Assembly (NCBI GenBank): GCA_043820925.1
Contig: JBDRDL010000038.1
Coordinates: 1 to 56,016 of the forward strand
Reading direction: 5' to 3'
From: Methanobacteriota archaeon
GTDB lineage: Archaea > Hydrothermarchaeota > Hydrothermarchaeia > Hydrothermarchaeales > JACRDW01
DNA length: 56,016 nt
Shown: positions 4,747 to 26,288 of the stretch, in pieces
How positions within the stretch are numbered: position 1 is the stretch's first letter
How the letters are laid out: every line of letters begins with the position of its first letter
Position numbers and translations under genes: made by a program
The notes under the pieces: generated by a model
The model's input: only the letters and a program-made list of their open reading frames with translations
Told to the model about the DNA's origin: nothing
Database searches by the model: none

Positions 4747-4897
4747 TTCGAATCCACTCGTCGAACTTGCTATCGCATTCGCTTCGTAGAAGCGAGAGCA
4801 CGAGTATCGCTCATGCTTTCGTTCTTTCGGAACGAGTGCTTCGTTCTCCTCCTGTCTTCACCCTTGGTTGCAGTTCGCTTCGCTCACTGTTTTCCCC

Positions 4898-4970
4898 AGC
4901 GTAAGCTGGGCGCAAGACTCACGGACTTGCTCACGCAAGCGTAAGCTGGGCGCAATACCTTTGCGCTTCC
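4898..4970. repeat. Two tandem Y-like repeat copies
   Basis: agcgtaagctgggcgcaagactcacggacttgctcacgcaag followed directly by agcgtaagctgggcgcaatacctttgcgcttcc. Confidence 0.8.
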
Positions 4971-4973
4971 GAC

Positions 4974-5027
4974 AGGAAGATTGGCAAACCCGCCAGCTTC
5001 CTTGCGGAAATCTTGCTTGCGCAAGGG
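4974..5027. repeat. Repeat modules Z+W
   Basis: aggaagattggcaaacccgccagcttcc + ttgcggaaatcttgcttgcgcaaggg; parallels 2922-2974. Confidence 0.8.
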
Positions 5028-5047
5028 CTTTTTTTAAAAGGGCTCAT

Positions 5048-5824: not shown

Positions 5825-5825
5825 C

Positions 5826-6896
5826 TCAAGCAGCCCTCGTCACCTTGCTTGCCTTCCATTTAGAGCGTATGTACAGGAAGCCGAGCATCGAGAGCACCAA
5901 GCCAGAGGTTATCCACGTTGCTAGCTCAACGTTGTTTATTTCCCCGATCAGAAACTGGCTAGCTGCACTTATGGTTACCCCGAAGGCTACTACAAACACC
6001 ATCATTACCATATACTTCCATGCCCCCTGCTTCTCGAGTACAGCGTCTATGCTCTTGCCAATTAGAGCAACGATAGCTGCGAAACTCAGAAAATTAATTG
6101 CGCCCGAAGAGAATACCGGCACTGCCTCTCTAATGCTGCGGAATGCGATACCTCTGCCCACAACTTCGTCGTATCCTACAGCTATTCCGACAACAGCTAT
6201 AAGTATCGAGACTACATAGGTGAAGAAGCTTATTTTCCCAGTAGCCACGGAGGACCTGAATTCTTCAAATATTCTCTGCACCGTACCTTCCAAACCAAAT
6301 CCCTTTATCACCAAGAATACGCCGACTGTGCCGGCAATTAGCCTCCAGCTCGCCGCCCCGAGCAGCATGTACAGTATTGCAGCAATTCCGGGCACACCTA
6401 TCAGGAGCTTGGCAAGTTTCGGGTCGCTAACGATATCTCTAAGAAAATCTTGAATGACGTAGTAGGTGCTCTCAAGTTTCTCAGCCTGCCTTACTATAAC
6501 CCTCTTCACAGCTATCACATTCGTTTTCGACTGGACTATCGGCAGGAGATACTCATCTTCTGCGCCGTCAGTTACGACAATAACTCCATCCGGCTTATTT
6601 TTTTCAAGAGCGTCATCAAGCTGTCTGGAAATTTTGGTATCGGATTCAACGCCGAGATTTTCGCTTCCAACGAGGGCAACGACCTCTACCTCTCTTCCCT
6701 CTTTCTTAAAGTAGTCTCCCACTTTTATGGCTTCGAAAAGAGCATTGGTGTCTGATTCGCTCGGGTCTGCCAAGCCGAGCCTTAAAGCTACATCCAGCAA
6801 TTTCTCTCTTCCGTAGATAGGACCGTCTTCGCCAATTTTCCTGAAAATGTCAGCATCCCTGTCGATGCAGATTACCAGTATTTTGTTATACTCCAT
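5826..6896 (-). CDS. DUF373-family archaeal membrane protein
   Basis: Soluble N-terminal domain (ILVICIDRDADI..., VIVVTDGAEDEY) followed by several TM helices, as in DUF373 proteins. Confidence 0.7.
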   Translation of the reverse strand: MEYNKILVICIDRDADIFRKIGEDGPIYGREKLLDVALRLGLADPSESDTNALFEAIKVGDYFKKEGREVEVVALVGSENLGVESDTKISRQLDDALEKNKPDGVIVVTDGAEDEYLLPIVQSKTNVIAVKRVIVRQAEKLESTYYVIQDFLRDIVSDPKLAKLLIGVPGIAAILYMLLGAASWRLIAGTVGVFLVIKGFGLEGTVQRIFEEFRSSVATGKISFFTYVVSILIAVVGIAVGYDEVVGRGIAFRSIREAVPVFSSGAINFLSFAAIVALIGKSIDAVLEKQGAWKYMVMMVFVVAFGVTISAASQFLIGEINNVELATWITSGLVLSMLGFLYIRSKWKASKVTRAA

Positions 6897-6898
6897 AA

Positions 6899-8134
6899 TT
6901 ACACCAGGTTGAATCTTCTCAGCAGATATATATCTTCCAGTGTTAGCTTCTCTCCTTTTTTGAATCTCCCATAAACGCTTTTGGCTTCTTCCTTTAATTC
7001 TCTATCGCTTTTTGGCTTTAGCTCAGTTTCAGCTTCCACCCTCTTAATACTTTTCTCAAGTTCTTTAATCTTCAGCACGCAAGAGTTCAGTTCCTCATTC
7101 AGCTTGTCCAGCGCAGGGTCTATTTCCTTTCTCTTGCTGTTCAGTTCGTCTATTTTGGCTTCTGCTTCCTTAATTTCTGCAACCGCCTGCAAGAATTTTT
7201 CATGCTGCTGCTGGGATTCCTTGGATAATTTTAAAATTTCCTCGTGCACTTTTCTTGAGCTGCTTTTATGCCTGTCGATTTCTTTTGAAAGTTCTATCAG
7301 CTCCTTGTACCCTTTCAGCTCCTGATTTAGCTTTTTAATTCTGTCTACGAGAGCATCTTCCTTTTTGATTTCCATTACGCTTGTCTGAAGCTTCCATTCC
7401 AGAGCGTCTATTTCTTTCTGGATTTTCTCGTAGTCCCCCTTTGGAGCACTTTCCTTGAGCTTTTTGTATTTTGCAACCAGAGCTTTTACGTGCTCATTCA
7501 TTTTTTCCCTTTCTTCTTTTAACTTTTTAACCTCCCAGTTGAGCTCGTCCCTGAGCTTTTTGGATTCGTTCGCTTTCTTGTTTTTTGTCTTTATTTTCTG
7601 TATCAATTCTCTCTTTTTATTTCCGAGCTCTCCGAGGGCTGCCTTCTTCTCAACAATGTCCCTCTTCATGTCCTGCATTCTCAGCTCGAGCATGTCTCCC
7701 TCCCTTATCATCGCCTCCATGTCGAGCTCTCCAAAAATATAGGGGAGGATTCTGGTAAGGTCTTTCTCGTATATTATAACGTCTGCTGCCTTGCCGGGCG
7801 CCGGCTTCGAATTAAATGCCATGCACAGTCCTGCTTTTTCGAAAGCTGATAGGTCATTTGCACTGGAGACTACTGCGCTGTCTCGCAGCGAAACGCCAGC
7901 TTTCTTTACTATCTTCTCAAATGCCTTGGTTCTGGAGTCTTCACCGGTTAGCGGTCCGGAAATCTCGTTGGTAATCGAGTAGTCCAAGCCCAGCTCTTTC
8001 TTTATCGTGTCCGCAACCGCACTATTTCCGCTGATTATGCCTGTTTTTATTCCCCTCTCCTTTAGCTTTGCAATCGTCTCCTTTGCTCCTTCCATTATCA
8101 ACGTGCCGTCAAGGTCGAACAGAACTAACTTCAT
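6899..8134 (-). CDS. HAD-superfamily phosphatase (PSP-like) fused to a long archaeal coiled-coil region
   Basis: HAD motif I MKLVLFDLDGTL and later SGNS / K / SSANDL motifs. The C-terminal ~270 aa are charged heptad repeats (COG1340-like). Confidence 0.75.
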   Translation of the reverse strand: MKLVLFDLDGTLIMEGAKETIAKLKERGIKTGIISGNSAVADTIKKELGLDYSITNEISGPLTGEDSRTKAFEKIVKKAGVSLRDSAVVSSANDLSAFEKAGLCMAFNSKPAPGKAADVIIYEKDLTRILPYIFGELDMEAMIREGDMLELRMQDMKRDIVEKKAALGELGNKKRELIQKIKTKNKKANESKKLRDELNWEVKKLKEEREKMNEHVKALVAKYKKLKESAPKGDYEKIQKEIDALEWKLQTSVMEIKKEDALVDRIKKLNQELKGYKELIELSKEIDRHKSSSRKVHEEILKLSKESQQQHEKFLQAVAEIKEAEAKIDELNSKRKEIDPALDKLNEELNSCVLKIKELEKSIKRVEAETELKPKSDRELKEEAKSVYGRFKKGEKLTLEDIYLLRRFNLV

Positions 8135-8143
8135 GCGCTACAC

Positions 8144-9418
8144 CTAAAAGAATTCATAGTATTTATATGCTTCCTCCTTATCAAAGCAGAATTTTACTTT
8201 TTTAAAGTTATTCTTCATCTCAATAACATCTCTCCTAACCTTTGCGATATCTTTATCGATTATCACTCTCTTAAAGAGCCCGGCTATCTCTTCCATCTCC
8301 TTTTCTTTCATCCCGACCCTCGTCAGTTCCTGGGTTCCGAGCCTGATTCCAGAGGGATTTTTGACATTGGTTATATCATCCCACGGCAGCAGATTCTTAT
8401 TTATAAGTATATTTGCCTTTTCGAGAGTTTCCGCAACCTTGCTGCCACCACCATTCTTTGAAACGTCCACAACTACGTGGTGCGATTGCGTGAATTCTTT
8501 TTTCTCGCACAGCACATTAAAGCCGAAGTTGTGCAGAGAGTGTGCAAGTGCCTTTGAATTTTTAATCATCTGCTTTGCATACGCCTCGCCGAAGTCCAGC
8601 ATTTCTGCAAGAGTGACAGCGAGTCCTGCCAGGTGATGCAGGTGGTGATTCGAAACCAAGCCTGGAAAAACTGCCCTGCTTATCTTTTTGCTGTATTCTT
8701 CCTTTGAAAGTATCAATCCTCCCTGAGGACCAGGAAGTGTTTTGTGCCGTGAGCTGGTAACTATGTCTGCGCCCTCTCTCAGCGGGTCCTGAAACTGCTT
8801 TCCTGCGATTAAACCCAGAACATGCGCAGCATCGTAAACAATCGCAGCACCTGCTTCGTTTGCGGCTTCTCTCAGCTCCTTCACAGGATGCGGGAATAGA
8901 AACACGCTTGCCCCGAAAAGCAGTATTTTTGGCTTCACTTCCCTGATTTTTTCAATGCTTTTTTCAACGTCTATGTTCATAGCTTCGCTGTCGAAAGGGA
9001 AGGATTTTACCTTAAGGCCTCTTACCCCTGCTGCGCTTAACTCGGCATGGCTTATGTGACCGCCGTGCGGCACCTGCAGAGCCATCATCGTATCCCCCGG
9101 CTGCGCAAGCGCAGAGTAAGCTGCGAGGTTTGCGACCGTGCCTGAAGTAGGGAGCACATTCACATATTCTGCTCTGAAAAGTTTTTTTGCCAGTTTTACT
9201 GCAATAATTTCAACTTCGTCTATGTACTTGCATCCCTGGTAAAGCCTTTTCCCCGGAGCACCCTCGGCATAGCGATGCCCGAAGTCACAGGCAGTAACTT
9301 CTCTAACAAGCCCACTCGAAACATTTTCACTCGCTATCATAGTTAGGCACTCCCCCATCCATTTGTGGTGCTTCTTTGCCGCTTCTCTCACCTTCAGGGC
9401 ATGCTTTTTAAAGCTCAT
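8144..9418 (-). CDS. glyA: Serine hydroxymethyltransferase
   Basis: LTMIASENVSS, HRYAEG, TSSRHKTLPGPQGG (PLP-lysine region). Confidence 0.9.
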   Translation of the reverse strand: MSFKKHALKVREAAKKHHKWMGECLTMIASENVSSGLVREVTACDFGHRYAEGAPGKRLYQGCKYIDEVEIIAVKLAKKLFRAEYVNVLPTSGTVANLAAYSALAQPGDTMMALQVPHGGHISHAELSAAGVRGLKVKSFPFDSEAMNIDVEKSIEKIREVKPKILLFGASVFLFPHPVKELREAANEAGAAIVYDAAHVLGLIAGKQFQDPLREGADIVTSSRHKTLPGPQGGLILSKEEYSKKISRAVFPGLVSNHHLHHLAGLAVTLAEMLDFGEAYAKQMIKNSKALAHSLHNFGFNVLCEKKEFTQSHHVVVDVSKNGGGSKVAETLEKANILINKNLLPWDDITNVKNPSGIRLGTQELTRVGMKEKEMEEIAGLFKRVIIDKDIAKVRRDVIEMKNNFKKVKFCFDKEEAYKYYEFF

Positions 9419-9440
9419 TCCATTTCCTCTCCAAAAAAAA

Positions 9441-10451
9441 TCAGCATAAGAGTATATTAATTTTGCTTGCCGCTTTTTTAAGCCTGTTCATTATCGCAAG
9501 TCCGATTCCTTTTTCCTCAAAGTTTTCTGAAATTATTACGTCCACGCCTTCTTCATCGAGTTTTCTTAAAGCATTGAATAAATTTCTCGCAACCTCTCGC
9601 AGGTTTTTTCTGCTTCCAACGACTTCGACTATTCCGCTGTACATCCGGGCATTTTCCCTCGTCGCCAAAATACCTATTTTTTTTCCTGACAGTTTCCTAA
9701 CAATCTCTGGAATCTTCTCTGCATCTAATAAGATTAACTCCGCTTTTGGAGCATAGTGGCGGTATTTCATCCCGGGAGAGCGGGGTTTTCCAAGCGGAAT
9801 GGACTGCTTTTCAACTTTTCCAAGCGCTCTTTTGAGTTCTTCAAAAGTGACACCGCCAGGTCTCAGAATAGCCGGCACAGAAGCAGTTAAATCTAACACC
9901 GTTGATTCCAGTCCTATATTCGCTGCACCGCCGTCGATTACTGCATCGATTTTTCCCTTTAAATCCTGCATCACGTGCTTCGCACTTGTCGGACTCGGCC
10001 TGCCTGAGATGTTTGCGCTCGGCGCTGCGATAGGAACGCCAGATGCAGAGATTAGACCAAGCGCAGTTTTATTGTCCGGCATTCTTATCGCAACTGTATC
10101 CAGACCTGCGGTTGTCACGCCCGGCAGTACTTCTGACTTTTTTAAAATCAGAGTTAAAGGACCTGGCCAGAATCTCTCAGCCAGAATTTTTGCTTTCTCT
10201 GGAACTTCTTTTGCAAGTTTTTTCAGCTCTTCTTTTTTTGCGATGTGCACTATTACCGGATTATCCAGGGGTCTCCCTTTAACTTCAAAAATTTTCTCAA
10301 CCGCTTCAACATCTAAGGCGTTTGCTCCAAGCCCGTACACTGTCTCAGTCGGGAATGCGACGAGACCGCCTCTTCTTATAATCCCTGCAGCAGTTTGAAT
10401 TTTTCTCTTGCTCGGTCTCCGGGGGTTTACTTTTAAGAGAATTGTCTCCAT
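9441..10451 (-). CDS. sua5: Threonylcarbamoyl-AMP synthase Sua5/TsaC with Sua5 C-terminal domain
   Basis: GGLVAFPTETVYGLGANAL, WPGPLTLIL, SANISGRPSPTSA, plus a ~120-aa C-terminal domain. Confidence 0.9.
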   Translation of the reverse strand: METILLKVNPRRPSKRKIQTAAGIIRRGGLVAFPTETVYGLGANALDVEAVEKIFEVKGRPLDNPVIVHIAKKEELKKLAKEVPEKAKILAERFWPGPLTLILKKSEVLPGVTTAGLDTVAIRMPDNKTALGLISASGVPIAAPSANISGRPSPTSAKHVMQDLKGKIDAVIDGGAANIGLESTVLDLTASVPAILRPGGVTFEELKRALGKVEKQSIPLGKPRSPGMKYRHYAPKAELILLDAEKIPEIVRKLSGKKIGILATRENARMYSGIVEVVGSRKNLREVARNLFNALRKLDEEGVDVIISENFEEKGIGLAIMNRLKKAASKINILLC

Positions 10452-10488
10452 GTTCTTTTCTTGATAAGATTAATATTTAAAGATGCTC

Positions 10489-10533
10489 AATAGCGAAGCT
10501 AGTGCGTTAGACCCGCGCTCTTGCTTACGCAAA
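10489..10533. repeat. Interspersed repeat, module Y
   Basis: aatagcgaagctagtgcgttagacccgcgctcttgcttacgcaaa. Confidence 0.85.
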
Positions 10534-10542
10534 GCATGAAGC

Positions 10543-10773
10543 ATGAAAAAAGAGAAGAAAGAAAGGTTGGAGAAGGAGAGAAAATATAGAGAAGTAGTGA
10601 AAAGATACAGGACATTAAACTTCCTTGGATTCATTTTTATAACAGCAGGCTTAATCTTGACTTTCTTTGAGCAGCCCGCAGGCCACCTATTTATTTCTGT
10701 AGGCATTGCAATGGCCGTGGCTTTCCTCTTCTTCTCTATTTACTCTCTGATAAAAAAGCGTGGAATGCGGTGA
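10543..10773 (+). CDS. Small two-TM membrane protein (hypothetical)
   Basis: Charged N-terminus followed by two hydrophobic helices; no family recognised. Confidence 0.35.
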   Translation: MKKEKKERLEKERKYREVVKRYRTLNFLGFIFITAGLILTFFEQPAGHLFISVGIAMAVAFLFFSIYSLIKKRGMR

Positions 10774-10775
10774 AA

Positions 10776-10817
10776 GCGTCTGCCCGAACCAGATACACGC
10801 TGTTAGGCGGCATTGCA
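10776..10817. repeat. Left inverted repeat flanking the hicAB cassette
   Basis: Its rc, gcaatgccgcctaacagcgtgtatctgg, matches gcaatggcgcctaacggctgagcgtatctga at 11329. Confidence 0.65.
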
Positions 10818-10820
10818 GCT

Positions 10821-11060
10821 TTATACTCTTTCATAGACCTTTAGAAATTCCTCTCTTGGTATTCCGGCTTGTCTGCAAATCGTTCTTAAAGTAGAGCCTT
10901 TTATCTTCTTGTGATTTGGCATGGTTAAAGGCGTTTTGCTGCCATCTGGATTTTCTCTAACCATTGAAATATGGTTTCCCACTCTTACGACTTTAAATCC
11001 CAGAATTTCAAAAGTCTTTATAACTTTCCGTTTTGGCGCATCCTTCGGAAACTTCATCAC
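10821..11060 (-). CDS. hicA: HicA-family mRNA interferase toxin
   Basis: KVIKTFEILGFKVVRVGNHISM...PNHKKIKGSTLRTICRQAGIPREEF matches the YcfA/HicA pattern. Confidence 0.85.
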   Translation of the reverse strand: MMKFPKDAPKRKVIKTFEILGFKVVRVGNHISMVRENPDGSKTPLTMPNHKKIKGSTLRTICRQAGIPREEFLKVYERV

Positions 11061-11272
11061 ATCGCCACTTCTGCAATGAAGGTTTCTATGATCTCTCCCG
11101 TTTCAAAAGCCTCTTTTCCAAAAGTTTCTATGTGAAACTTGATAGCAGATTTCACATCCGCGAGCGCTTCCTCGTAAGTATCACCTTCTCCAACCACCAC
11201 ACCCTTTAATCCCAGAGGATATGCCACATAGCCTTCAGGATGTTTTTCAACGATTATTTTTATTTGTCTCAT
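11057..11272 (-). CDS. hicB: HicB-family antitoxin (UPF0150-type)
   Basis: EKHPEGYVAYPLGLKGVVVGEGDTYEEALADVKSAIKFHIE; 4-nt ATGA overlap with hicA. Confidence 0.8.
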   Translation of the reverse strand: MRQIKIIVEKHPEGYVAYPLGLKGVVVGEGDTYEEALADVKSAIKFHIETFGKEAFETGEIIETFIAEVAM

Positions 11273-11326
11273 TTTCTCACCGATCTTTTATTTGATTTCA
11301 GCTTTATAAAGGATATAATTAACCTC

Positions 11327-11424
11327 GGCAATGGCGCCTAACGGCTGAGCGTATCTGAAGTTCCGACCGCAGGGAGGAATTTGGGCGGAGTGCCGAAGGC
11401 ACGAAGCCAGATATGCTCTGTTAT
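11327..11424. mobile_element. MITE-like hairpin element (right hicAB flank)
   Basis: cctaacggctgagcgtatctg ... cagatatgctctgtta are imperfect inverted termini about 45 nt apart; both arms are homologous to the element at 10776-10817. Confidence 0.5.
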
Positions 11425-11465
11425 ATGAAGTTGCCCCCATTTCCTTTTCACTGCTTCTTATCTGA

Positions 11466-11984
11466 TTATTGTTGTCTGTTTAATATTATATTACTCCAAC
11501 CTTCCAAGCTACGATCGCCTATTTCGTACTTTTTGAGTGATTGAATTTGTACTCTCAATTCTTCAGTTGAGAATTTTATTAATGAAGTAATAAGCGGACT
11601 AATAGCTTTTTGCCTTGATTTAGCACGAACTTCTTGCAACCCCAAGCGTCTTGCAAATTCGTTAATGTCTCTTAGGGATGGTAAAACTGTCTTTGCAACT
11701 AAGTCGGTATAAAAGTTCATTAATAGTTGGTACTTTCCAAGATCTACGCCTTCAAGAGTAATTAGCGCCCTCGGAATCGATTGCCCTTGTTTTGGTCTTG
11801 TCTCTCGTGTCGTTTTTGGAATAGTTCGGGCTATCTTCGCAACCTCTGTTAGAATAAGTGGCAGGCGTTGTCTCATTTCTGGTGATGAAATAGATTCTGC
11901 AAGCAACTCAAAAGGTTCAGGACCGTATTTTTTTAGCAATTTTACTATATCGACCAACAAATCTAGTTCTTGCTTTTTTCTCAT
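11466..11984 (-). CDS. Uncharacterised 172-aa protein coupled to the ParA-like ATPase
   Basis: 4-nt ATGA overlap with the upstream ATPase gene. Helical N- and C-terminal parts flank a basic, low-complexity centre (TIPKTTRETRPKQGQSIPR). No domain recognised. Confidence 0.7.
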   Translation of the reverse strand: MRKKQELDLLVDIVKLLKKYGPEPFELLAESISSPEMRQRLPLILTEVAKIARTIPKTTRETRPKQGQSIPRALITLEGVDLGKYQLLMNFYTDLVAKTVLPSLRDINEFARRLGLQEVRAKSRQKAISPLITSLIKFSTEELRVQIQSLKKYEIGDRSLEGWSNIILNRQQ

Positions 11985-12829
11985 AGACCTATCCTTCCCG
12001 CAAATTCCTCAGCAAATGCATGAAATTTACTAGCTTGAGACGACCTTGCATAAGATGTGCTAAAAATTGGGCGTCCTTCTCGAGCTCCTTTTGGATATGA
12101 ACGCGAGTAGCTGACTTCAGCGTTAAAAACGTACCATCCATGCTTTGAGGCTATACTTTTTACCTCGTTCTTGGACTTAACCTCCTCCGGAACGTATCCT
12201 GATGTATGATTGAAAACTATCCCAGCAAGATCTAAATTGTGATCTCCATAAGGGCCGACCTTGAATTCTTCCATAGAACGTACTAGTAGTGGAAGGCCTA
12301 TCGAAGATAGATACTCTGGCTTGACGGGAACAAGTAAGTAATCACTTGCCAGATAGGCTGCTGTAGTTAAAACGGACTCAGTCGGTGCACAATCCTGCAG
12401 AATAAGATCATACTCATTTTCAATCTTTGAAATGAGTTTTGCAAGGAGACTCTCCTTCTGCCCAGGATTTCGCAATGAATATGCCAGCTCTAAACGAGAG
12501 GGAATCAGATCGATACAACTGCCATCAGAATATGAAACAACATTGTAGAGCACCGATTTTGGAAGTAGCGGTATTGGTTTACTTTTGCCTGGCGTGTGTG
12601 TAAGCTGTTCGAATACATCCCAAACTGTAGGAATGTTTTTCTTAAGAATATCTTCATATTTGCGGACTCCAATAAGGTACTGACTCGCATTGAATTGTGG
12701 ATCTAGGTCAACAACCAATACTTTCTTGTTCCATTTGGACAGCCCAGCAAACTGCCAAGCTAGATTGACAGCCAATGTAGATTTTCCTACACCGCCTTTC
12801 ATGTTGATTAACGAAACTTTCTTAGCCAT
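11981..12829 (-). CDS. ParA/Soj/MinD-family deviant Walker A ATPase
   Basis: INMKGGVGKSTLAVNLA (deviant Walker A), VVDLDPQFN (A'), LILQDCAPT (Walker B). GGAGGTGA lies 5 nt upstream of the ATG. Confidence 0.85.
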   Translation of the reverse strand: MAKKVSLINMKGGVGKSTLAVNLAWQFAGLSKWNKKVLVVDLDPQFNASQYLIGVRKYEDILKKNIPTVWDVFEQLTHTPGKSKPIPLLPKSVLYNVVSYSDGSCIDLIPSRLELAYSLRNPGQKESLLAKLISKIENEYDLILQDCAPTESVLTTAAYLASDYLLVPVKPEYLSSIGLPLLVRSMEEFKVGPYGDHNLDLAGIVFNHTSGYVPEEVKSKNEVKSIASKHGWYVFNAEVSYSRSYPKGAREGRPIFSTSYARSSQASKFHAFAEEFAGRIGL

Positions 12830-12907
12830 GTTTAATCACCTCCTATATTGTAATACCTTGCGATTATATTTGCTTTTTGTTTAACGCGGGCAATTTCATA
12901 TAACTCC

Positions 12908-12988
12908 TTATATACGAACATGGTTCGCCTATCCTGCCGGTTTATATACGAACTTCGCACTGTCTCCTTAAGGAGCGAAGTTTATATT
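12908..12988. promoter_or_regulatory. Iterated TATA-like / palindromic repeats in the parA-bud32 divergent intergenic region
   Basis: ttatatacgaac at 12908 and 12942. Palindrome cgaacatggttcg at 12915-12927. Near-palindrome aacttcgc..ctccttaaggag..gcgaagtt at 12951-12982. tttatatt about 25 nt upstream of the bud32 ATG. Confidence 0.5.
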
Positions 12989-13011
12989 CAATTAAAAATA
13001 AAGAAAGCTCT

Positions 13012-13629
13012 ATGGAAATGATAGGCAAGGGCGCAGAGGCGAACATTTACTTGCAGGAGGGCAGGGTAATCAAGGAGAGGATTTCCAAGGCTTACAGGGT
13101 AAAAGAATTAGACGAAGCGCTCAGAAAGACGAGAACCAAAAGGGAGGCTAAATTAATCTCTCTTGCGAGAAGAGCAGGTGTCCCAACGCCTTTTATCCTG
13201 GACGTAAATAATCCAGATACCACCGTCGAAATGAGCTTTGTTAGGGGCATACAGGTGAAAAAACTGCTGAACAAAGCATCAAAAAAAGATAGAGAGCGAA
13301 TTTGCAGGGAAATTGGCAGAAGCGCTGGAAAACTGCACGGTAATAATATAATTCACGGCGATTTGACAACTTCTAATATGATTCTCGCAGACAACAGGAT
13401 TTACTTCATAGATTTCGGTCTCGGAGAAGTAAGCGAGGCAGTCGAGGATAAGGGAGTAGATTTGCTGGTATTTAAAAAATCGTTGCGTTCTACACACTAT
13501 AAATTCGAGAATGAGTGTTTCAAAGCTTTTGTTAACGGTTACTCCAAAGAATATAGAGCGTGCAAAAACGTTCTGGAGAGATTAAAAATAATAGAGCTGA
13601 GGGGGAGATATTTCGCCGAGCGGTTTTAG
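13012..13629 (+). CDS. bud32: KEOPS subunit Bud32 (atypical RIO-like kinase), stand-alone
   Basis: IGKGAEANIY (P-loop-like), TRKEAKLISLARRAGVPTP, IIHGDLTTSNMIL, FIDFGLG, LRGRY tail. Confidence 0.9.
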   Translation: MEMIGKGAEANIYLQEGRVIKERISKAYRVKELDEALRKTRTKREAKLISLARRAGVPTPFILDVNNPDTTVEMSFVRGIQVKKLLNKASKKDRERICREIGRSAGKLHGNNIIHGDLTTSNMILADNRIYFIDFGLGEVSEAVEDKGVDLLVFKKSLRSTHYKFENECFKAFVNGYSKEYRACKNVLERLKIIELRGRYFAERF

Positions 13630-14159
13630 TAAGTGCATACGATGGCACTGCCTGCATGCAGCTCAAAGTATGGGCAGGGTTTCATGCATTCTTTTATCTC
13701 AACTTCACTCCTCTTCCAGGGACACTCGACAGAGCTGTTTTTGATTGAAATACTCCTTCTGGGGTGACCTTCTTTGAACCACTTAAGAGAAGGTGCTGTA
13801 GACTCGTAGGTGTTCTTGTTCACCTGCTTTATGTACTTCAGTGCTTGCAATATCAATAGCGCCCTTGCGACAACGGTCTTTTTCAACGGAACCTGCTTGT
13901 AGAGATCCTTCTCCCTGAAGATTGGGGGTAGGGTATAGAGATATTTCTTTACGCTTTCTACCTCTTCCTTGGATATGGAGGGGTTGTTTTTCCGTAAAAG
14001 CACATATTTGGTGTTAGTTCTCAAAATTACTCCTTTTTCAAATTCTAGTAAATCCCCATTCAATTTTGAGAGCTTTTCATCTATTTTAGACAGCTTTCTT
14101 TCTAATTCTTCTTTTGCTTTCACTAAACCTTTTATCCTCTGTATGCTGATTTTCATCAA
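13626..14159 (-). CDS. Hypothetical protein (coiled-coil N-terminus, Cys-rich C-terminus)
   Basis: 177-aa ORF; its end converges on and overlaps the end of bud32 by 4 nt; no family recognised. Confidence 0.5.
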   Translation of the reverse strand: MMKISIQRIKGLVKAKEELERKLSKIDEKLSKLNGDLLEFEKGVILRTNTKYVLLRKNNPSISKEEVESVKKYLYTLPPIFREKDLYKQVPLKKTVVARALLILQALKYIKQVNKNTYESTAPSLKWFKEGHPRRSISIKNSSVECPWKRSEVEIKECMKPCPYFELHAGSAIVCTY

Positions 14160-14224
14160 TTAATCTTTCAAAATTACCGTCAAAAAACCAAAAAATTTAT
14201 GTTTTAGGAAAAAAAAGCAGAGCC

Positions 14225-14776
14225 ATGGTCTACTTCATAACCTCGAGTATGCACAAATATCTGGAAACAAGGGAAATATTTAGAAGCCACGGGCTTGAAT
14301 TAGGGAGAATATCCAAAAATTACACAGAAATACAGGCAGATACCCTTGAAGAAGTAGTAAAAGAGGCTCTCAAGCGCATAAACAGGAAAAAAGTATTTAT
14401 TGAGGATGCCGGTATTTTTATAAAAGCCCTAAAGGGCTTCCCTGGCGTTTACTCACGCTACATCGAGGACACAATCGGAAATCAGGGAATTTTAAGATTG
14501 ATGCGTGATGTTAAAAAGCGCAGTGCTATCTTCAAGTCAGTCGTGGGCTACAGAGACGCTGAAATAAAGCTCTTCAAGGGCGAAGTTTTCGGCAGCATAG
14601 CCTTCGAAGAGAGAGGCAGCAGGGGCTTCGGCTACGACCCCATATTCATACCAAAAGGTTATAATAAGACCTTTGCAGAGGATTATGAGCTGAAGCAGAG
14701 AATTTCGCACAGGAGAAAAGCAGTAGAAAAACTTGCAAAATTTCTCAGCACTTCGGCATCAAGCTTTTCACAATAG
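14225..14776 (+). CDS. Non-canonical purine NTP pyrophosphatase (Ham1/RdgB/ITPase)
   Basis: FITSSMHKYLE, EDAGIFIKALKGFPGVYS, GFGYDPIF, SHRRKA. Confidence 0.85.
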   Translation: MVYFITSSMHKYLETREIFRSHGLELGRISKNYTEIQADTLEEVVKEALKRINRKKVFIEDAGIFIKALKGFPGVYSRYIEDTIGNQGILRLMRDVKKRSAIFKSVVGYRDAEIKLFKGEVFGSIAFEERGSRGFGYDPIFIPKGYNKTFAEDYELKQRISHRRKAVEKLAKFLSTSASSFSQ

Positions 14777-14792
14777 CAGGTACGGATGATGC

Positions 14793-14896
14793 CTCGTGCC
14801 GAGACCTACCGCTACACTTGCCGAAGGCAAGTGGTAGAAAAGCGGTCAAGAGCGAGTGAGCAACGAGTGAAACGAGTTGTGAACGAGGGATTGAAA
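14793..14896. repeat. Composite repeat block forming the rps15 upstream region
   Basis: ctcgtgccgagacc also occurs at 51569. Hairpin ctacacttgcc gaa ggcaagtggtag. Quasi-tandem acgagtga-like units: gcgagtga, acgagtga, acgagttgtga, acgaggga. Confidence 0.7.
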
Positions 14897-15349
14897 ATGG
14901 CAAGGATGCATTCAGGTAAGAGAGGCAAATCAGGTTCGACAAGACCTTACAGAACCTCGCCCCCGGAGTGGGTAGAGTATCAACCGCAGGAGCTGGAAAG
15001 TCTCATAGTCAAACTTGCGAAGAAGGGCGAGAATCCGAGCGTAATTGGTGCAATATTAAGAGACCAGTACGGCATACCAAATGTGAAGTTGCTCACAAAA
15101 AAGAGGATAACCGAAATTTTGGATAAAAAGGCAAAAAGAGAGATACCAGAGGATTTGATGAATTTAATTAAAAAAGCAGTAAATTTGGAGAAGCACCACA
15201 TAGCAAAGCCTCAGGATATGACTGCCAAGCGGGGCACGCAGTTAGCTGAATCAAAAATAAAGAGGCTTGCGAAGTACTACGTAAGGGAAGGCAAATTACC
15301 TGCTGGCTGGCGGTACGACCTTGCAAAAGCCAAGCTGCTGGTGAAATAG
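14897..15349 (+). CDS. rps15: 30S ribosomal protein S15 (uS15)
   Basis: [17 protein letters not shown]... is a typical archaeal S15 N-terminus. The track ORF start at 14786 lies in repeat sequence and was rejected. Confidence 0.9.
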
Positions 15350-15351
15350 CG

Positions 15352-16776
15352 ATGCCGGCTCCAAAACAAATGCTCAGGGAGTTTGAGGAAGCTTCAAAAG
15401 TTTTGAAAGAATTAATTGAGAAAGGCAAGGTTGTTAGACTAATAACCCACAACGATGCAGACGGGCTTAGTGCTGGAGCAATACTCCACAAGAGCCTGAT
15501 TAGGGAAAACTGTGCAGTGCATACGAGAAGCGTTAAGCAGCTTGACGAGGGAGCAATAAAAGATGCTTCGGCAAATAGCCAGGAAGTCATCATAATCGCA
15601 GACTCTGGCAGCGGGCAGCTGGAGGAGATAAAGGAGCACCTGCTTGAGAAGTACCACGTAATAGTTTTAGACCACCACCAGCCTAAGGAAATAAAGCATG
15701 AAAATTTATTCCACATAAATCCCCACAACCACGGCATTGATGGAGCCAGAGAAATCAGCGGTGCAGGAATGGCGTATTTATTTTCTAAGGCGGTAAATCC
15801 AAGCAATGTGGATTTATCGCCGTTGGCAGTCGTAGGTGCGCTGGGAGATATTCAGGATGCTGGCGGCGAGCTTGTCGGGCTGAACAGAGATATACTTGAA
15901 GACGGGGTAAAGGCAGGGGTTTTAAAGGCTGAGAAGGATTTACGCTTGTTTGGAAGGCAGACGAGACCGCTGTACAAGGCGATAGAATATACAACAGAAC
16001 CGTTCGTCCCGGGCTTGAGCGGAAGCGAGTCAGCATGCGTGCAGTTTCTCAACGACCTCGACATACCTGTTAAAAAAAATGATAAATTTACGATGCTTGC
16101 GGACTTGGACAAAGATGAAAGGCAGAGGCTGGCAACTGCGCTAATACTCAAGATGATCGAATACAAAGTTCCTCCAAAATTTGCAGAGAGCATAGTAGGC
16201 GAGGTTTACACTCTGCTGAATGAAGAGAAGAGGACCCCTCTCAGAGATGCAAGAGAATTTGCAACTCTCCTCAACGGCTGCGGCAAGCACGATAAAAACG
16301 GCATCGGTATTGCGGTCTGCTTGGGAGAGAGAGGCGAGCTTTATCAGAAATCACTCGAAATGCTCAAAGAGCACAAGGGCTATCTGTTCTTCTGCTACAA
16401 CTGGATTTCCAAGAACATAGGCAGAATCAAGGATGCAGAAGTTTTATACTACCTCTATGCAAATAATGAAATCAACGAAAGCGTTTTAGGCACAGTAGCT
16501 TCGATGATTCTAAATTCAAGAATACTAACGCCCATAAAGCCGATTATTGCATTCTCTGAAACAGAAGACGGTGCAATCAAGGTATCTGCGAGGGGCACGA
16601 GAGAGCTGATAGAGAGGGGTTTAAATCTGGGCAAGGTAATGCTGTATGCTTCTGAAAAGACTGGCGGCGAGGGCGGAGGTCACGATATCGCTGCCGGAGC
16701 AAAAATCGAGAAGGGGAAAGAGGAGGAGTTCCTGAGGCATGCAAAAGAGGAAATAAAAAGGCAGTTGCATGAATAG
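15352..16776 (+). CDS. DHH-family RecJ-like nuclease (archaeal GAN/Cdc45-like)
   Basis: ITHNDADGLSAGAIL, IIIADSGSG, VLDHHQP, GGGHDIAAGA. The rps15-recJ-like adjacency is typical of euryarchaea. Confidence 0.85.
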   Translation: MPAPKQMLREFEEASKVLKELIEKGKVVRLITHNDADGLSAGAILHKSLIRENCAVHTRSVKQLDEGAIKDASANSQEVIIIADSGSGQLEEIKEHLLEKYHVIVLDHHQPKEIKHENLFHINPHNHGIDGAREISGAGMAYLFSKAVNPSNVDLSPLAVVGALGDIQDAGGELVGLNRDILEDGVKAGVLKAEKDLRLFGRQTRPLYKAIEYTTEPFVPGLSGSESACVQFLNDLDIPVKKNDKFTMLADLDKDERQRLATALILKMIEYKVPPKFAESIVGEVYTLLNEEKRTPLRDAREFATLLNGCGKHDKNGIGIAVCLGERGELYQKSLEMLKEHKGYLFFCYNWISKNIGRIKDAEVLYYLYANNEINESVLGTVASMILNSRILTPIKPIIAFSETEDGAIKVSARGTRELIERGLNLGKVMLYASEKTGGEGGGHDIAAGAKIEKGKEEEFLRHAKEEIKRQLHE

Positions 16777-17086
16777 CGAAGCTAGTGCGCAAGACTTACG
16801 CTCTTGCTTACGCAAGGCGAAAGCTAAAATTGAGTTTAGATATAAGGACGCAAAAACAGCGCAGAAAATTTCTTATTTGTTAGAAGTCGACAATAAAATA
16901 CCGAAGGTAGGCGCAACACCATTGCGGCTTGCTATCGCAATTGCTCCTAAAAAAATAAAAACAGAAAGCAGGGGCAACAGAGTAATAACGCACATAGAGC
17001 ACGAGAAATTGGGTACCTTGCTCGCAACAATAGACGACCTGCTGTTCTGCGAGAGATTGATTGAGGATTTGGTATGCTGGACATAA
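16769..17086 (+). CDS. pcc1: KEOPS subunit Pcc1 carrying repeat-derived segments
   Basis: AKAKIEFRYKDAKTAQKISYLL...RGNRVITHIEHEKLGTLLATIDDLLFCERLIEDL follows the Pcc1 beta-alpha-beta-beta-alpha pattern. The only canonical in-frame start is the ATG at 16769. Confidence 0.7.
   Translation: MNSEASAQDLRSCLRKAKAKIEFRYKDAKTAQKISYLLEVDNKIPKVGATPLRLAIAIAPKKIKTESRGNRVITHIEHEKLGTLLATIDDLLFCERLIEDLVCWT
16772..16816. repeat. Interspersed repeat, module Y, spanning the recJ-like stop and pcc1 codons 2-16
   Basis: aatagcgaagctagtgcgcaagacttacgctcttgcttacgcaag. Confidence 0.85.
16897..16942. repeat. Module X repeat copy inside the pcc1 reading frame
   Basis: aataccgaaggtaggcgcaacaccattgcggcttgctatcgcaatt aligns with the copies at 2840, 24092 and 45172; translated in frame as IPKVGATPLRLAIAI. 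Confidence 0.8.
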
Positions 17087-18360
17087 ATTTGATTCGGGAG
17101 AATCCGGAAATCGTCAAGAATGACTTGAGAAAGCGGGGTAGCTTAGAAAAAATTGCTATAGTTGAAGAGCTGCTCAACTGGGACAGAAAGCGCAGGGGGC
17201 TAATAACAAGAACGAATGAGCTGAAGCATCTGCGGAATTTAATTTCGCAGGAGATTTCTAAACTCAAGGCAGAGGGAGAGGATTTTTCTAAAAAACTGAA
17301 GGAAATCAAAGAAATTCCGGAAAAAATTAAAGAGTCCGAAGCAGAGATTCAGGAATGCGAAGAAAAGCTCAGGCAGCTGCTGTTCAAGCTTCCAAATATT
17401 CTTCACGAATCTGTTCCAGAAGGTAGGGGCGAAGAAGATAACAAAGAAATCAGAAGATGGGGAAAAGCGAGGCGCTTTGAATTTGCAAAGGACCACATAG
17501 ATTTAAGTCTTGCCCTGGATTTGGTTGACATAGATAGAGCCGGAAAGGCTGCTGGAGCAAGATTTTATTATTTAAAGAACGAGTTGGTGCTGCTCAACTA
17601 TGCTCTAATAAAATTTGCATTGGATGAAATGCGGGAGAAGAATTTCATTCTCTGGCAGCCCCCCTACATGCTGCGCAGGAGGGGCGTAGAGAGCGCAACC
17701 GACTTGTCAGACTTCGAGGACGTTATCTATAAAATCGAGGGCGAAGATTTATACTTACTTGCGACTTCTGAGCACGCCTTGCTTGCGCTGCACATAGACG
17801 AGATACTCGACGGAAAAATCCTGCCCCTGAGATACTGCGGAATCTCGCCATGCTTCAGAAAGGAAGCAGGTGCGCACGGCAGGGATACGAAAGGTATTTT
17901 TAGAGTACACCAGTTCGAGAAAGTGGAGCAGTTCGTTTTCTGCAAGCCGAGCGAATCCTGGAAGGAGCATGAGAGGTTAATCAGCAATGCAGAGGAGCTT
18001 TTCCAGAGTCTGGAGATACCTTACAGGGTTATGAATGTCTGCACGGGCGACATAGGAAGCGTTGCTGCGAAGAAGTACGACATCGAGGCTTGGCTGCCGG
18101 GGCAGGGAAAGTACAGGGAAGCCGTCTCCTGCAGCAACTGCACGGATTACCAGGCGAGAAGAGCCAATATAAGGTACCGGGAAGACCCCGGCAAGCCCAC
18201 GTCGTTCGTGCACACCCTGAACAGCACTTTCGTTGCCACCGAGAGAGCTCTGGTTGCTATCCTTGAAAATTATCAGCGGAAGGACGGAAGCATAAAAATA
18301 CCTGAAGTCTTAATTCCTTACATGAACGGCATAACCGAAATAAAAGCAAAAAATATATAA
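17074..18360 (+). CDS. serS: Seryl-tRNA synthetase
   Basis: N-terminal coiled-coil arm and class II motifs (FRKEAGAHGRDTKGIFRVHQFEKVE, LNSTFVATERALVAILEN). Confidence 0.9.
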   Translation: MLDINLIRENPEIVKNDLRKRGSLEKIAIVEELLNWDRKRRGLITRTNELKHLRNLISQEISKLKAEGEDFSKKLKEIKEIPEKIKESEAEIQECEEKLRQLLFKLPNILHESVPEGRGEEDNKEIRRWGKARRFEFAKDHIDLSLALDLVDIDRAGKAAGARFYYLKNELVLLNYALIKFALDEMREKNFILWQPPYMLRRRGVESATDLSDFEDVIYKIEGEDLYLLATSEHALLALHIDEILDGKILPLRYCGISPCFRKEAGAHGRDTKGIFRVHQFEKVEQFVFCKPSESWKEHERLISNAEELFQSLEIPYRVMNVCTGDIGSVAAKKYDIEAWLPGQGKYREAVSCSNCTDYQARRANIRYREDPGKPTSFVHTLNSTFVATERALVAILENYQRKDGSIKIPEVLIPYMNGITEIKAKNI

Positions 18361-24012: not shown

Positions 24013-24091
24013 TACTCGCTGTTAAAGACGGCAAAAAAGTCTCGCTTTTAACAGTGGACAGGGAAATAAAAAAATGGAGCAAAGATAAAGT

Positions 24092-24136
24092 AATACCGCG
24101 AGGTAGGCGCAATACTATCGTACTTGCTAACGCAAT
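24092..24136. repeat. Interspersed repeat, module X
   Basis: aataccgcgaggtaggcgcaatactatcgtacttgctaacgcaat. Confidence 0.85.
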
Positions 24137-25482
24137 GTGCCCAAAAATTTAAGTATTGCAGAAGCGTATATTCCATTGTGCAGGAAGCTATAGTTGCGGA
24201 AGCAAAACCAAAAAAATTTTTGTTTGTTTCTACTCAGGGACTTATCGGCGATTTAGCCTGGCAGGTGAGAAAGGAGGGTAATGAAGTAAAATATGCCATT
24301 CACAGTAAAGTTGATAAAGACGTCTGCGACGGTTTTGTCGATAAAGTAGATGACTGGCAGGCAGAGAAGGACTGGGCAGACGTTATCGTATTTGATGACA
24401 TAGGTTTTGGCGAAGCTGCGGATAAATTGAGGCGCGAAGGAAAACTCGTAGTTGGCGGAAGCGCATACACCGACAAACTCGAAGACGACAGAGATTTCGG
24501 CCAGGAGGAGATGAAAAGCGCTGGTTTAAACATCCTTCCAAAGTGGAACTTTACAGATTTTGACGAGGCGATAAAGTTTGTCCGTGAAAATTCCGGGAGA
24601 TATGTAATCAAGCCAAGCGGCAGGGCACAGGACGAAAAAGAGCTGCTTTTCATAGGACAGGAAGAAGACGGAATAGACATAATCCAGGTTCTCGAGCATT
24701 ACAGGAAAAACTGGGCAAAGAAGATAAAAATTTTTCAACTGCAGAAGTTCGCCGCTGGAGTTGAAGTGGCAGTCGGCGTTTTCTTCAATGGAAAGGAATT
24801 CATAACGCCTGTGAATATAAACTTTGAGCACAAGCGGATGTTTCCTGGAGATATCGGACCTGCCACAGGCGAGATGGGAACATCGATGTTCTGGACCCAG
24901 CCGAATGTCCTGTTTAACGAGACAATCGCTAAAATGAAGTCGAAGCTAGCTGAGTGCGGATACGTTGGTTACATAGACATAAACTGCATCGCAAATGCAA
25001 GAGGTATCTATCCTCTTGAATTCACGTCGCGTTTTGGTTACCCGACGATAAACATACAGATGGAAGGCGTAACAAGCAACTGGGGCGAGTTTCTCTATGC
25101 CCTTGCAAAGGGAGAGCAATACCAGCTAAAAACAAAAAAAGGTTTGCAGGTGGGAGTTGTGATAGCGGTGCCTCCATTCCCTTTTAAAGACAACGACGCT
25201 TTTAGGAAGTACTCGGAAGATGCGACGATACTCTTCAAGAAGCCTGTTACAGACGGAATGCACATATGCGATGTAAAGCTAGTCGAGGGTGACTGGAGGC
25301 TCGCCGGGGTTTCGGGATATGTGCTTGTGGTTACAGGTTCAGGCGCAACAATGGAAGAGGCGCGCAAGCAGGCTTACCAGCGAATTAAAAATATAATGAT
25401 TCCAAACATGTTTTATCGAACAGACATAGGTGCTAAGTGGTCAGAAGACGGGGACAAGATGCGTACTTGGGGATATATATAA
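24124..25482 (+). CDS. Non-canonical PurD-like ATP-grasp ligase
   Basis: GARS-like layout with ATP-grasp core (YVIKPSG, FEHKRMFPGDIGPATGEMG, LEFTSRFGYP) but no GGREHA motif. The track TTG start lies in the repeat; in-frame GTG at 24178 is a more likely start. Confidence 0.7.
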   Translation: MLTQCAQKFKYCRSVYSIVQEAIVAEAKPKKFLFVSTQGLIGDLAWQVRKEGNEVKYAIHSKVDKDVCDGFVDKVDDWQAEKDWADVIVFDDIGFGEAADKLRREGKLVVGGSAYTDKLEDDRDFGQEEMKSAGLNILPKWNFTDFDEAIKFVRENSGRYVIKPSGRAQDEKELLFIGQEEDGIDIIQVLEHYRKNWAKKIKIFQLQKFAAGVEVAVGVFFNGKEFITPVNINFEHKRMFPGDIGPATGEMGTSMFWTQPNVLFNETIAKMKSKLAECGYVGYIDINCIANARGIYPLEFTSRFGYPTINIQMEGVTSNWGEFLYALAKGEQYQLKTKKGLQVGVVIAVPPFPFKDNDAFRKYSEDATILFKKPVTDGMHICDVKLVEGDWRLAGVSGYVLVVTGSGATMEEARKQAYQRIKNIMIPNMFYRTDIGAKWSEDGDKMRTWGYI

Positions 25483-25615: not shown

Positions 25616-25933
25616 ATGAGAAGTCCAAAGAGAAAAATGCCAGCAGTAGGCAAATGTTTTGATCACTTAGGTGGGCAGTTAGCACCTATGCTATTCACCC
25701 GTCTGCTTGAAATGGAATGGATAAAACCAGAAGAAGGCAAAAAGACCGTATTTGAAGTTACAGAGAAAGGTAAGAAAAGATTTAAAGAGGTATTTAATAT
25801 TGATGTGTCGAAGCTTGAGGAATACACTAAAAAAAGTTTAGATGAATTATTTGGAAGCTTACCAGAACTGGACTTAAAGCGAATTAGGAAAGAGCACTCT
25901 GAGGAAGTCGAGAATGAACATTTTGGTCGATAG
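25616..25933 (+). CDS. VapB-like antitoxin with atypical DNA-binding N-domain
   Basis: DHLGGQLAPMLFTRLLEMEWI resembles the wing domain seen in some ArsR-type regulators. The acidic C-tail (GSLPELDLKRIRKEHSEEVE) is antitoxin-like. It overlaps the PIN gene by 20 nt. Confidence 0.55.
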   Translation: MRSPKRKMPAVGKCFDHLGGQLAPMLFTRLLEMEWIKPEEGKKTVFEVTEKGKKRFKEVFNIDVSKLEEYTKKSLDELFGSLPELDLKRIRKEHSEEVENEHFGR

Positions 25934-26288
25934 TTTTGCTTGGTTAGAGCTCCTTCAGGGTTCAGAAAAAGGCAAAAGATTTTTACAAATTCTCAAAGAG
26001 AATAGAGGAGGAATTTATACTTCTGTGTTAAATCTTTACGAGATTCGATACAGAGTAGAAGAACTCAGGAATGCAAAGACAGCAGATGAATTTGTTAAAA
26101 TCGTTGAGAGCTATGCAAAGATTCTTGATGTCGCTAGAGGCGTTGCTATTCAAGCCTCAAAAATAAAGTTAAAGATGAAAAAGATAGGGGCAATAGATTG
26201 TCTTATCCTCGCCTCCGCAAAGATTAACAATTTAAAGGTTTTAACTGGTGACCCACATTTTGATGGGGTAGAAGGAGTAATTAGATAG
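25914..26288 (+). CDS. vapC: PIN-domain toxin VapC
   Basis: ILVDSFAW (Asp1), YEIRY (Glu), IGAIDCLILA (Asp), LTGDPHF (Asp). Confidence 0.8.
   Translation: MNILVDSFAWLELLQGSEKGKRFLQILKENRGGIYTSVLNLYEIRYRVEELRNAKTADEFVKIVESYAKILDVARGVAIQASKIKLKMKKIGAIDCLILASAKINNLKVLTGDPHFDGVEGVIR

Follow-up and report, generated by a model that had tools for sequence, protein, structure and literature searches.

In-frame invasion of bacterial genes by palindromic repeats is a classic phenomenon, exemplified by the Rickettsia palindromic elements (RPEs) and by intragenic copies of the repetitive extragenic palindromes (REPs); the bacterial precedent covers in-frame REP and RPE insertions, stop codons supplied by repeats, and N-terminal positions (PMC3733652, PMC10969869). 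Our literature searches for intragenic REP-like repeats in archaea returned nothing specific, with no archaeal case and none in KEOPS. Here we analyse a 56,016-nucleotide (nt) stretch of DNA from a Methanobacteriota archaeon of the Hydrothermarchaeota lineage (GenBank assembly GCA_043820925.1, contig JBDRDL010000038.1), referred to as the window, in which a small KEOPS gene, identified below as pcc2, carries two copies of a dispersed hairpin repeat: insert Y directly after the start codon and insert X in the interior of the gene. In our view these copies of a selfish small-repeat family have been fixed in frame in pcc2, where they are probably translated and tolerated.

RPEs, as summarised in two secondary sources (Ogata et al., 2000, via PMC10969869 and PMC3733652), form a palindromic family that lies in frame in housekeeping genes, is absent from orthologues and occupies sites compatible with the protein fold, N-termini being possible, and in all these respects the present case is alike. 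According to the same summaries, RPEs are bacterial, about 100-150 bp long and encode tens of residues, whereas the family described here is archaeal, modular, unrelated in sequence and mostly intergenic, and contributes 42-45 nt (14-15 amino acids [aa]). REPs and the bacterial interspersed mosaic elements (BIMEs) built from them are closer in size, being stem-loops of 20-40 nt with compensatory stem variants (Di Nocera et al., 2013, PMC3733652). They share with the present family a location mostly downstream of or between genes, an occurrence in clusters and arrays, the supply of stop codons and occasional copies in open reading frames (ORFs) or at N-termini (PMC3733652). However, REPs carry an unpaired GTAG or CGTC tag, and the GTAG type is linked to REP-associated tyrosine transposases (RAYTs) (PMC3733652), whereas in the family described here GTAG is paired in the stem of hairpin 1 and the window yielded neither a RAYT nor any other transposase. 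The GTAG is present in X-type copies only, as the 3' arm of hairpin 1, and covaries to CTAG or CTGG in the other sub-types. Repeats with GTAG or CGTC tags have been reported in bacterial phyla only, archaea not being listed in the survey (PMC3733652).

Prokaryotic MITEs (miniature transposable elements with inverted repeats), including those of Sulfolobus and Haloquadratum, are likewise short, non-autonomous, multicopy and variable between strains, and can form in-frame fusions (reviewed in PMC10969869). The present family has neither their terminal inverted repeats of 15-30 bp nor a consistent target-site duplication, and its unit is far shorter. Because GTAG is paired and covarying, no transposase was found among about 60 window ORFs, and inverted repeats and target-site duplications are lacking, membership in the REP, RPE or MITE families is unsupported; we regard the family as lineage-specific small dispersed repeats that resemble REP and MITE elements.

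Two repeat-derived segments in a KEOPS gene

The sequence and the 105-aa ORF given in a preliminary description of the window, which had been made from the letters alone, were confirmed (Table 1). Compared with orthologues, the window gene showed exactly two extra blocks in protein as well as DNA alignments. A protein search returned seven close relatives of 75-83 aa, and both blocks were missing from five orthologues (75-77 aa) that have the same recJ-pcc-serS synteny and whose flanking genes are 84-87% identical in DNA. The first block, Y, reads M-[NSEASAQDLRSCLR]-KAKAKIEF and belongs to a full repeat copy at 16772-16816. The second, X, reads DNKI-[PKVGATPLRLAIAI]-APKK within a repeat copy at 16897-16941, whose hairpin 1 is TACC-GAA-GGTA (16899-16909) and whose hairpin 3 is TTGC-TATC-GCAA (16929-16940). 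The boundaries of the inserts are ambiguous by 2-3 nt because A/AAT is shared. Both blocks were recovered by an nhmmer profile made from nine window copies, and Y also matches the site at 2879 within three mismatches, zero such matches being expected from shuffled sequences.

The positions of the two blocks are unusual within the wider family. In 81 of 83 homologues, the stretch corresponding to N42-T65, which holds the connection between helix 1 and strand 2, comprises 8-10 residues; the two outliers are the window protein (22 residues) and P0002 (16). Similarly, the N-terminus ahead of strand 1 measures 5-9 residues in 81 of the 83, the window protein being an extreme outlier. Judged from these comparisons, both inserts are derived, not ancestral. 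The alternative that orthologues share the insert residues as ancestral sequence, raised in the preliminary description, is contradicted by their absence from the five orthologues. Its central proposal, a small KEOPS protein with two repeat-derived segments, is borne out by the orthologues that lack both, by the in-frame allelic series and by the purifying selection on the core described below. The orthologue alignment it had suggested as a check revealed the internal insertion and the N-terminal extension, at 14 aa each. The in-frame insertion of X stands, with a net length of 42 nt (14 codons) instead of the 45 nt first given, and the repeat origin of the N-terminal codons stands too, with a net extent of 14 codons instead of codons 2-16.

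Close relatives form an allelic series. The window allele carries the 42-nt Y and the 42-nt X (105 aa). L145 (Ga0394678), with 97-99% identity in flanking genes, has Y, a nested 45-nt module and the same 42-nt X (120 aa); the module, TTCC-ACAA-GGAAGACGGC...GCCAGCTTCC-TGTC-GGAA, is nested in frame inside Y (Ga0394678_54590, 1125-1487). L116 (Ga0180009), with flanks about 95% identical, has Y with a 1-nt difference and 24 nt at the X site (99 aa), so that Y is common to L116 and L145. L001, at about 86%, lacks Y and carries 24 nt of other sequence at the X site (83 aa), and five other relatives, at about 84-87%, have no inserts (75-77 aa). The 42-nt and 24-nt forms of X differ by 18 nt, which correspond to hairpin 1 plus GCGCAA and lie between ACC direct repeats. 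L001 was not clearly sister to the window clade in a phylogeny, which is compatible with either a single or a repeated insertion at the X site.

At least four independent indel events (24, 42, 42 and 45 nt) are present in this series, and all are multiples of three and free of stop codons; the chance that four indels would be in frame was estimated as about (1/3)^4 = 0.012. Over the 69 codons of the core, the ratio of non-synonymous to synonymous substitution rates (dN/dS) was 0.05-0.17 against relatives at about 85% identity. Between the window and L001, both of which bear an insert, dS was 0.37 and dN/dS 0.07. Substitutions inside the inserts are few and all non-synonymous (L to S, I to V).

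Identity and predicted structure of the host protein

The preliminary description had named the host gene pcc1, a name that we replace: on the evidence that follows it is identified as the Pcc2 paralogue and not as canonical Pcc1. First, a profile of the host family searched against all PDB sequences matched only the Pcc2 chains of P. abyssi, 7a66 and 7a67 (E=6.6e-11), and the same search found no Pcc1 chain at E<=1. Second, the motif ATIDDLLF in the C-terminal helix carries the D-D signature of Pcc2 (D89-D90). The diagnostic feature of Pcc2 is D/E-D/E at positions 72-73 of the P. furiosus protein, where Pcc1 has N-S/T (Daugeron et al., 2023, PMC9889334). Third, the best Foldseek match of the modelled structure was Pcc2 7a66, with a template-modelling (TM) score of 0.79 normalised to the target, with Pcc1 structures ranking behind it; 7a67 and 3enc are also among the top matches.

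The crystallised P. abyssi Pcc2 (7A66) matches NF011470 at 42.8 bits (cut-off 27) and not the Pcc1 model NF040853, and proteins named 'Pcc1' by NF011470 are probably Pcc2 orthologues. One lesson for annotation is that the NCBIfam model which gives the name 'Pcc1' recognises crystallised Pcc2, so that the label is a naming issue. A second is that the inserts drop the protein below Pfam detection: the full-length window protein was undetected by the Pfam Pcc1 model. With NF011470 it scored 39.7 bits, split over two stretches, and after removal of both inserts by hand it scored 49.2 bits in one stretch.

Pcc2 is the fifth archaeal KEOPS subunit (Daugeron et al., 2023, PMC9889334), and the host protein is like it in profile, signature and fold; it differs from P. 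abyssi Pcc2 by a shorter helix-1 to strand-2 connection and by the two additional repeat-derived segments. Pcc2 is essential in S. islandicus and not in M. maripaludis (PMC9889334), and because it is dispensable in the latter, the word 'essential' used in the preliminary description is not assured for the host protein. The dimer interface of Pcc2 is made by strand 1 and the C-terminal helix, and the helix-1 to strand-2 connection is a region in which Pcc1 and Pcc2 differ (PMC9889334).

An AlphaFold2 model built from the 83-sequence alignment had a mean predicted local distance difference test (pLDDT) score of 79.9, with core blocks at 91-97. It showed the beta-alpha-beta-beta-alpha fold (E17-24, H28-43, E62-68, E71-78, H81-104). 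Residues 47-59, in insert X, had a pLDDT below 50, and the N-terminal tail was modelled as a helix of low confidence. In this prediction X would form a disordered surface loop at the helix-1 to strand-2 connection and leave the Pcc fold intact. The placement of X in the loop after helix 1, as proposed earlier, agrees with this disordered loop and with the near-invariant loop length of homologues.

The repeat family and its other copies

Repeat finding and the nine-copy profile show that X and Y, initially taken for separate modules, are repeat elements that share one family and one length, two sub-types of a unit of about 45 nt, distinguished by compensatory changes in hairpin 1 (TACC..GGTA versus TAGC..GCTA). 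Some 9-10 copies, whose E-values range between 1e-13 and 1e-8, are present in the window. One copy was found in L009, the nearest GTDB species representative, a groundwater 'Methanobacteriota archaeon', and about 27 further strong copies were found by a pattern scan of Joint Genome Institute (JGI) metagenomes, every one on Ga0180009 contigs. A profile search of about 80 other archaeal pcc loci detected no family copy. The next relatives of the window lineage are Hydrothermarchaeota with about 43% Pcc identity.

In an alignment of 36 copies, the unit begins with hairpin 1, a stem of 4-5 bp closed by a GNNA or GAA loop, continues with a GCGCAA.AC...CTTGC segment that can pair in several registers, and ends with an invariant CTTGC-UNNC-GCAAG hairpin. 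The stem of hairpin 1 is maintained by compensatory pairs (C-G in 19 copies versus G-C in 16; U-A in 29 versus C-G in 6): 81-89% of cells were paired overall, compared with 19-48% when the partner columns were slid. In the window, Rfam gave no match at gathering thresholds nor at E<=1, and ARAGORN found no tRNA.

Table 1. Inserts, host gene, neighbouring genes and other repeat copies in the window
Feature	Positions	Strand	Remarks
Insert Y, 42 nt/14 codons	16772-16813	+	DNA alignment, 6 orthologous loci; nhmmer E=2.3e-13
Insert X, 42 nt/14 codons	16900-16941	+	Protein and DNA alignments; nhmmer E=2.3e-8
pcc2 ORF, 105 aa	16769-17086	+	ORF list; NCBI label 'KEOPS complex subunit Pcc1'
recJ/GAN-like DHH phosphoesterase gene	15352-16776	+	Pfam DHH, DHH_CID, DHHA1
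serS, seryl-tRNA synthetase	17074-18360	+	Pfam; overlaps pcc2 3' end
Composite, intergenic	2877-2975	+	Y-type copy 2877-2924; GGAAGA..GCCAGCTTCC module 2913-2957; then second hairpin-3 unit
cgi121	4273-4746	-	
Array upstream of cgi121, intergenic	4894-5026	+	Full copy 4894-4939; partial 4938-4968; GGAAGA module 4965-5009
sua5	9441-10451	-	Start at 10451
Y-type copy	10487-10534	+	36 nt upstream of sua5 start
bud32	13012-13629		
X-type copy, intergenic	24090-24137	+	
Copy between convergent nadA and next gene	32913-32960	-	Overlaps nadA last codons
X-type copy at tatC end	45169-45217	+	GTGA loop holds tatC stop
Copy within hypD-hypA spacer	51603-51651	-	Nested in 15-bp stem CTCGTGCCGAGACCC / GGGTCTCGGCACGAG

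The gene pcc2 belongs to a compact unit in which it overlaps the end of recJ by its ATG and the start of serS by its stop codon; because of these overlaps the recJ-pcc2-serS unit has no intergenic space. The same gene order is found in L001-L008, L116 and L145. The last codon of recJ and its stop lie within Y, which furnishes the TAG at 16774-16776; RecJ consequently ends in QLHE* in the window and in QLHES* in orthologues. As a side observation, four genes of the N6-threonylcarbamoyladenosine (t6A) pathway (cgi121, sua5, bud32 and pcc2) are present inside 13 kb (window 4273-17086).

Nearly all the other copies are intergenic or at gene ends. At tatC, the TGA at 45179-45181 is the stop codon of the TatC ORF (44444-45181), whose final residues are repeat-derived. 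The TGA that the preliminary description had noticed in this copy does lie in the GTGA loop and terminates TatC; in the pcc copy the loop is GAA, one base shorter. A second tatC gene lies downstream (45933-46655). The hypD-hypA spacer, of about 300 nt (51540-51830), is packed with nested hairpin modules; the listed 210-aa 'HypA' ORF overruns this spacer, the HypA domain starting at residue 87. Hairpin modules also occupy the ham1-rpS15 spacer, over about 120 nt in the window (14742-14896) and about 330 nt in L116 (1906-2237; 95% identical). Ham1 ends in ...STSASSFSQ* in the window and in ...STS* in L116, and the 187-aa ORF call for S15 over-extends into the repeats, the real start being at 14897.

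Modules of the GGAAGA type, as nested in the Y of L145, occur in the window at 2913-2957, 4965-5009 and 50746-50795. In L100, L136 and L090, a family copy is itself nested in the loop of a GGAAGA..GCCAGCTTCC module.

The 36 members were inspected for other copies inside ORFs, and these candidates were rejected: where a long open frame runs across a copy, it is nearly always an antisense shadow or precedes the true start. Copies upstream of the true start were found for S15, a thiolase, a fumarase-like protein and a response regulator; only L128 was ambiguous. In L128 (Ga0180009_10016149, 3220-3330, minus strand), a putative secreted protein may have the N-terminus MKNL-[16 aa, reverse-oriented copy]-FILLTICGS-NLAYAIA, in which a CTTGCTTACGCAATTGCT unit encodes NLAYAIA, the frame being the one that gives LAIAIA in pcc2; alternatively, a GTG or TTG start downstream of the copy is possible.

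Two further features of the window were recorded. A perfect 38-nt direct repeat is present at 28928-28965 and 29635-29672, 707 nt apart, and the 38-nt repeat is followed by a 35-nt stretch of 77% identity (29016-29050 and 29672-29706). The pair, which looks like a partial duplication, surrounds the 5' end of a gene for an SFM1-like methyltransferase (28448-29002, minus strand). In addition, a HicA/HicB-like small pair and a PIN-domain gene, both of toxin-antitoxin type, were noted by eye at 10821-11272 and 25914-26288, amid housekeeping genes.

One copy interrupts a tRNA gene. In L137 (Ga0180009_10034934, 1953-2071, minus strand), the anticodon loop contains a 42-nt Y-type copy. Read as tRNA-Gly(UCC), the gene has its intron at the canonical 37/38 position, with a bulge-helix-bulge motif AGC-CUUC-[CAU]-AGC ... 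GCU-GACG-[CAA]-GCU that matches at 9/10 and from which 42 nt would be excised. The ARAGORN parse, tRNA-Ala(UGC) with a 34/35 intron, was rejected for lack of a G3:U70 pair, and an Infernal parse, which has to assume two insertions (7 + 36 nt), is less economical than a single 42-nt intron at 37/38. The L137 copy resembles archaeal bulge-helix-bulge introns, known from tRNAs and the cbf5 mRNA, in its position and its 42-nt length, whereas the pcc2 copies are without usable motif and analogous cleavage shifts the frame. Other copies on Ga0180009 contigs (L113, L136, L100 and L130) lie 20-150 nt from genes for tRNA-Pro, tRNA-Arg, tRNA-Ser and tRNA-Cys.

It is conceivable, although we think it rather unlikely, that the family is a mobile element able to create archaeal introns, of which the tRNA-Gly(UCC)-like copy would be a living example of intron gain. 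Together with the anticodon stem and loop, the unit would form a near-canonical bulge-helix-bulge motif. If this were true, essential genes would retain a copy only if it is either removed by splicing, as in the tRNA, or in frame, as in mRNA. That some mRNA copies are also processed is a corollary to which we give still less weight. The copy at the tRNA intron site offers a concrete handle on the origin of archaeal tRNA introns.

Origin and fate of the inserts

In the explanation that we favour, dispersed repeats of about 45 nt, each able to form three short hairpins, populate the intergenic DNA of this archaeon, and two copies have become fixed within pcc2 despite the absence of intergenic space in its unit. 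They would persist there because their length is a multiple of three, they contain no in-frame stop and the Pcc fold is tolerant at both sites, the extreme N-terminus, which precedes strand 1, and the surface segment that links helix 1 to strand 2. Transcription and translation of the inserts would produce a Pcc2 of 105 aa that has 14 additional aa as an N-terminal tail and 14 as a floppy loop. On present sequence evidence, the inserts are most likely translated and tolerated; we infer that they are neutral or close to it, and that their source was selfish DNA that moves or recombines.

Several observations weigh against this explanation. No transposase domain was found by Pfam among about 60 ORFs of the window, which represents 56 kb of the genome. 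The flanks of the 36 copies show no shared target motif and no clear target-site duplication, the only microhomologies at the three datable insertions being AAT, AA and TCTT (2-4 nt, ambiguous). Terminal inverted repeats are absent as well, the ends of a copy being two different hairpins that are not inverted versions of one another. The evidence that the inserts are translated is conservation of the frame, and stable hairpins right after the start codon could hinder initiation, which would suggest a cost or a regulatory effect instead of neutrality. The family copy at a tRNA intron site, with its bulge-helix-bulge-like motif, makes RNA processing possible in principle. A motif of the same kind, scoring 9/10, is present inside X (bulges at 16910 and 16937) and would cut 27 nt in frame; about 0.7 such motifs are expected by chance among the 806 position pairs tested. 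Finally, when the X-site inserts of the window and L116 are compared over the 24 positions that they share, about 7 differ. Because this divergence exceeds the approximately 5% of the flanks, simple vertical inheritance of the X-site alleles does not account for it. Each of the two alleles resembles a different repeat sub-family, and possible causes of the divergence are re-insertion at a hot spot, conversion from other copies, and a deletion after which the loop evolved fast.

Among the alternatives to tolerated selfish insertions, co-option fares best, and we still consider it improbable. The inserts would then serve either at the RNA level, as hairpins that adjust the translational coupling of recJ and pcc2, or as peptides that alter Pcc1-Pcc2 pairing or KEOPS oligomerisation. 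Y, which adjoins the ATG, folds into hairpins; strand 1, part of the dimer interface (PMC9889334), has the N-terminal tail next to it; and other copies lie just upstream of the t6A-pathway genes sua5 and cgi121. However, length and sequence vary among strains that are 95-99% identical (X of 0, 24 or 42 nt; Y with an additional 45 nt), which argues against a fixed function of the inserts; the non-synonymous nature of their substitutions and the lack of ordered structure of X in the model also speak against co-option. At the RNA level, the whole insert regions were not significantly stabler than shuffled sequences (z = -1.05 and -0.03), the isolated elements reaching z of about -1.2 to -2.4.

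Bulge-helix-bulge introns in mRNA are known for cbf5 in Crenarchaeota. The pcc2 inserts might similarly be removed from the mRNA, for example by the tRNA-splicing endonuclease, to give a Pcc2 of about 77 aa; this alternative, already raised in the preliminary description, draws on the near-canonical motif (9/10) around the 42-nt Y-type copy in L137, and we judge it very unlikely. A natural-geometry scan of the boundaries of X and Y gave no motif that would excise the 42 nt, so that neither insert has a usable bulge-helix-bulge; the highest-scoring candidates (9/10) would remove 27, 36 or 20 nt and are as frequent as expected by chance. If the geometry of the tRNA copy is imposed on Y, there is almost no outer helix and 41 nt are removed, with a frameshift to MKGES-stop, and in L145 the analogous cut would remove 86 nt. 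Splicing, moreover, would leave it unexplained that at least four indels all have lengths divisible by three and lack stop codons.

Slightly less probable still is that the pcc copy is a decaying pseudogene and that a functional gene lies elsewhere in the genome. It is true that the Pfam Pcc1 model misses the full protein, that only 56 kb of the genome is in view and that Pcc2 is dispensable in some archaea (PMC9889334). This alternative and the assembly artefact considered next are rejected because of the in-frame allelic series, the low dN/dS of the core and the lack of a second Pcc-like ORF in the window, where the next-best hmmsearch match had E=0.35. Four alleles with inserts have an intact ORF, the overlaps of its start with recJ and of its stop with serS are conserved, and the window protein has kept all the invariant residues of the family.

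The two remaining alternatives are barely credible. Short dispersed repeats can mislead assemblers into chimeric joins, but each insert is flanked on both sides by collinear pcc2 sequence and the same insertions are present in independent assemblies (window, L116 from Ga0180009 and L145 from Ga0394678), against an assembly or binning artefact. The T4 gene 60 and mitochondrial 'byp' systems involve short GC-rich hairpin inserts in coding regions, a likeness that might suggest programmed hopping of the ribosome over the inserts, but there is no stop codon after the take-off codon, take-off and landing codons are mismatched (AUA/AUU at X, none at Y), and conservation of the frame makes bypassing unnecessary.

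Tolerated in-frame insertion in pcc2 would thus remain the explanation to retain, as a new archaeal case of small palindromic selfish repeats accommodated in protein genes. The strains form a natural series, 85-99% identical, in which a protein of about 77 aa, of known structure and with known partners, carries 0, 8, 14, 22, 28 or 43 extra residues, and this series is a test of insertion tolerance, in the Pcc fold and at the Pcc1-Pcc2 interface, and of the rate at which such repeats turn over.

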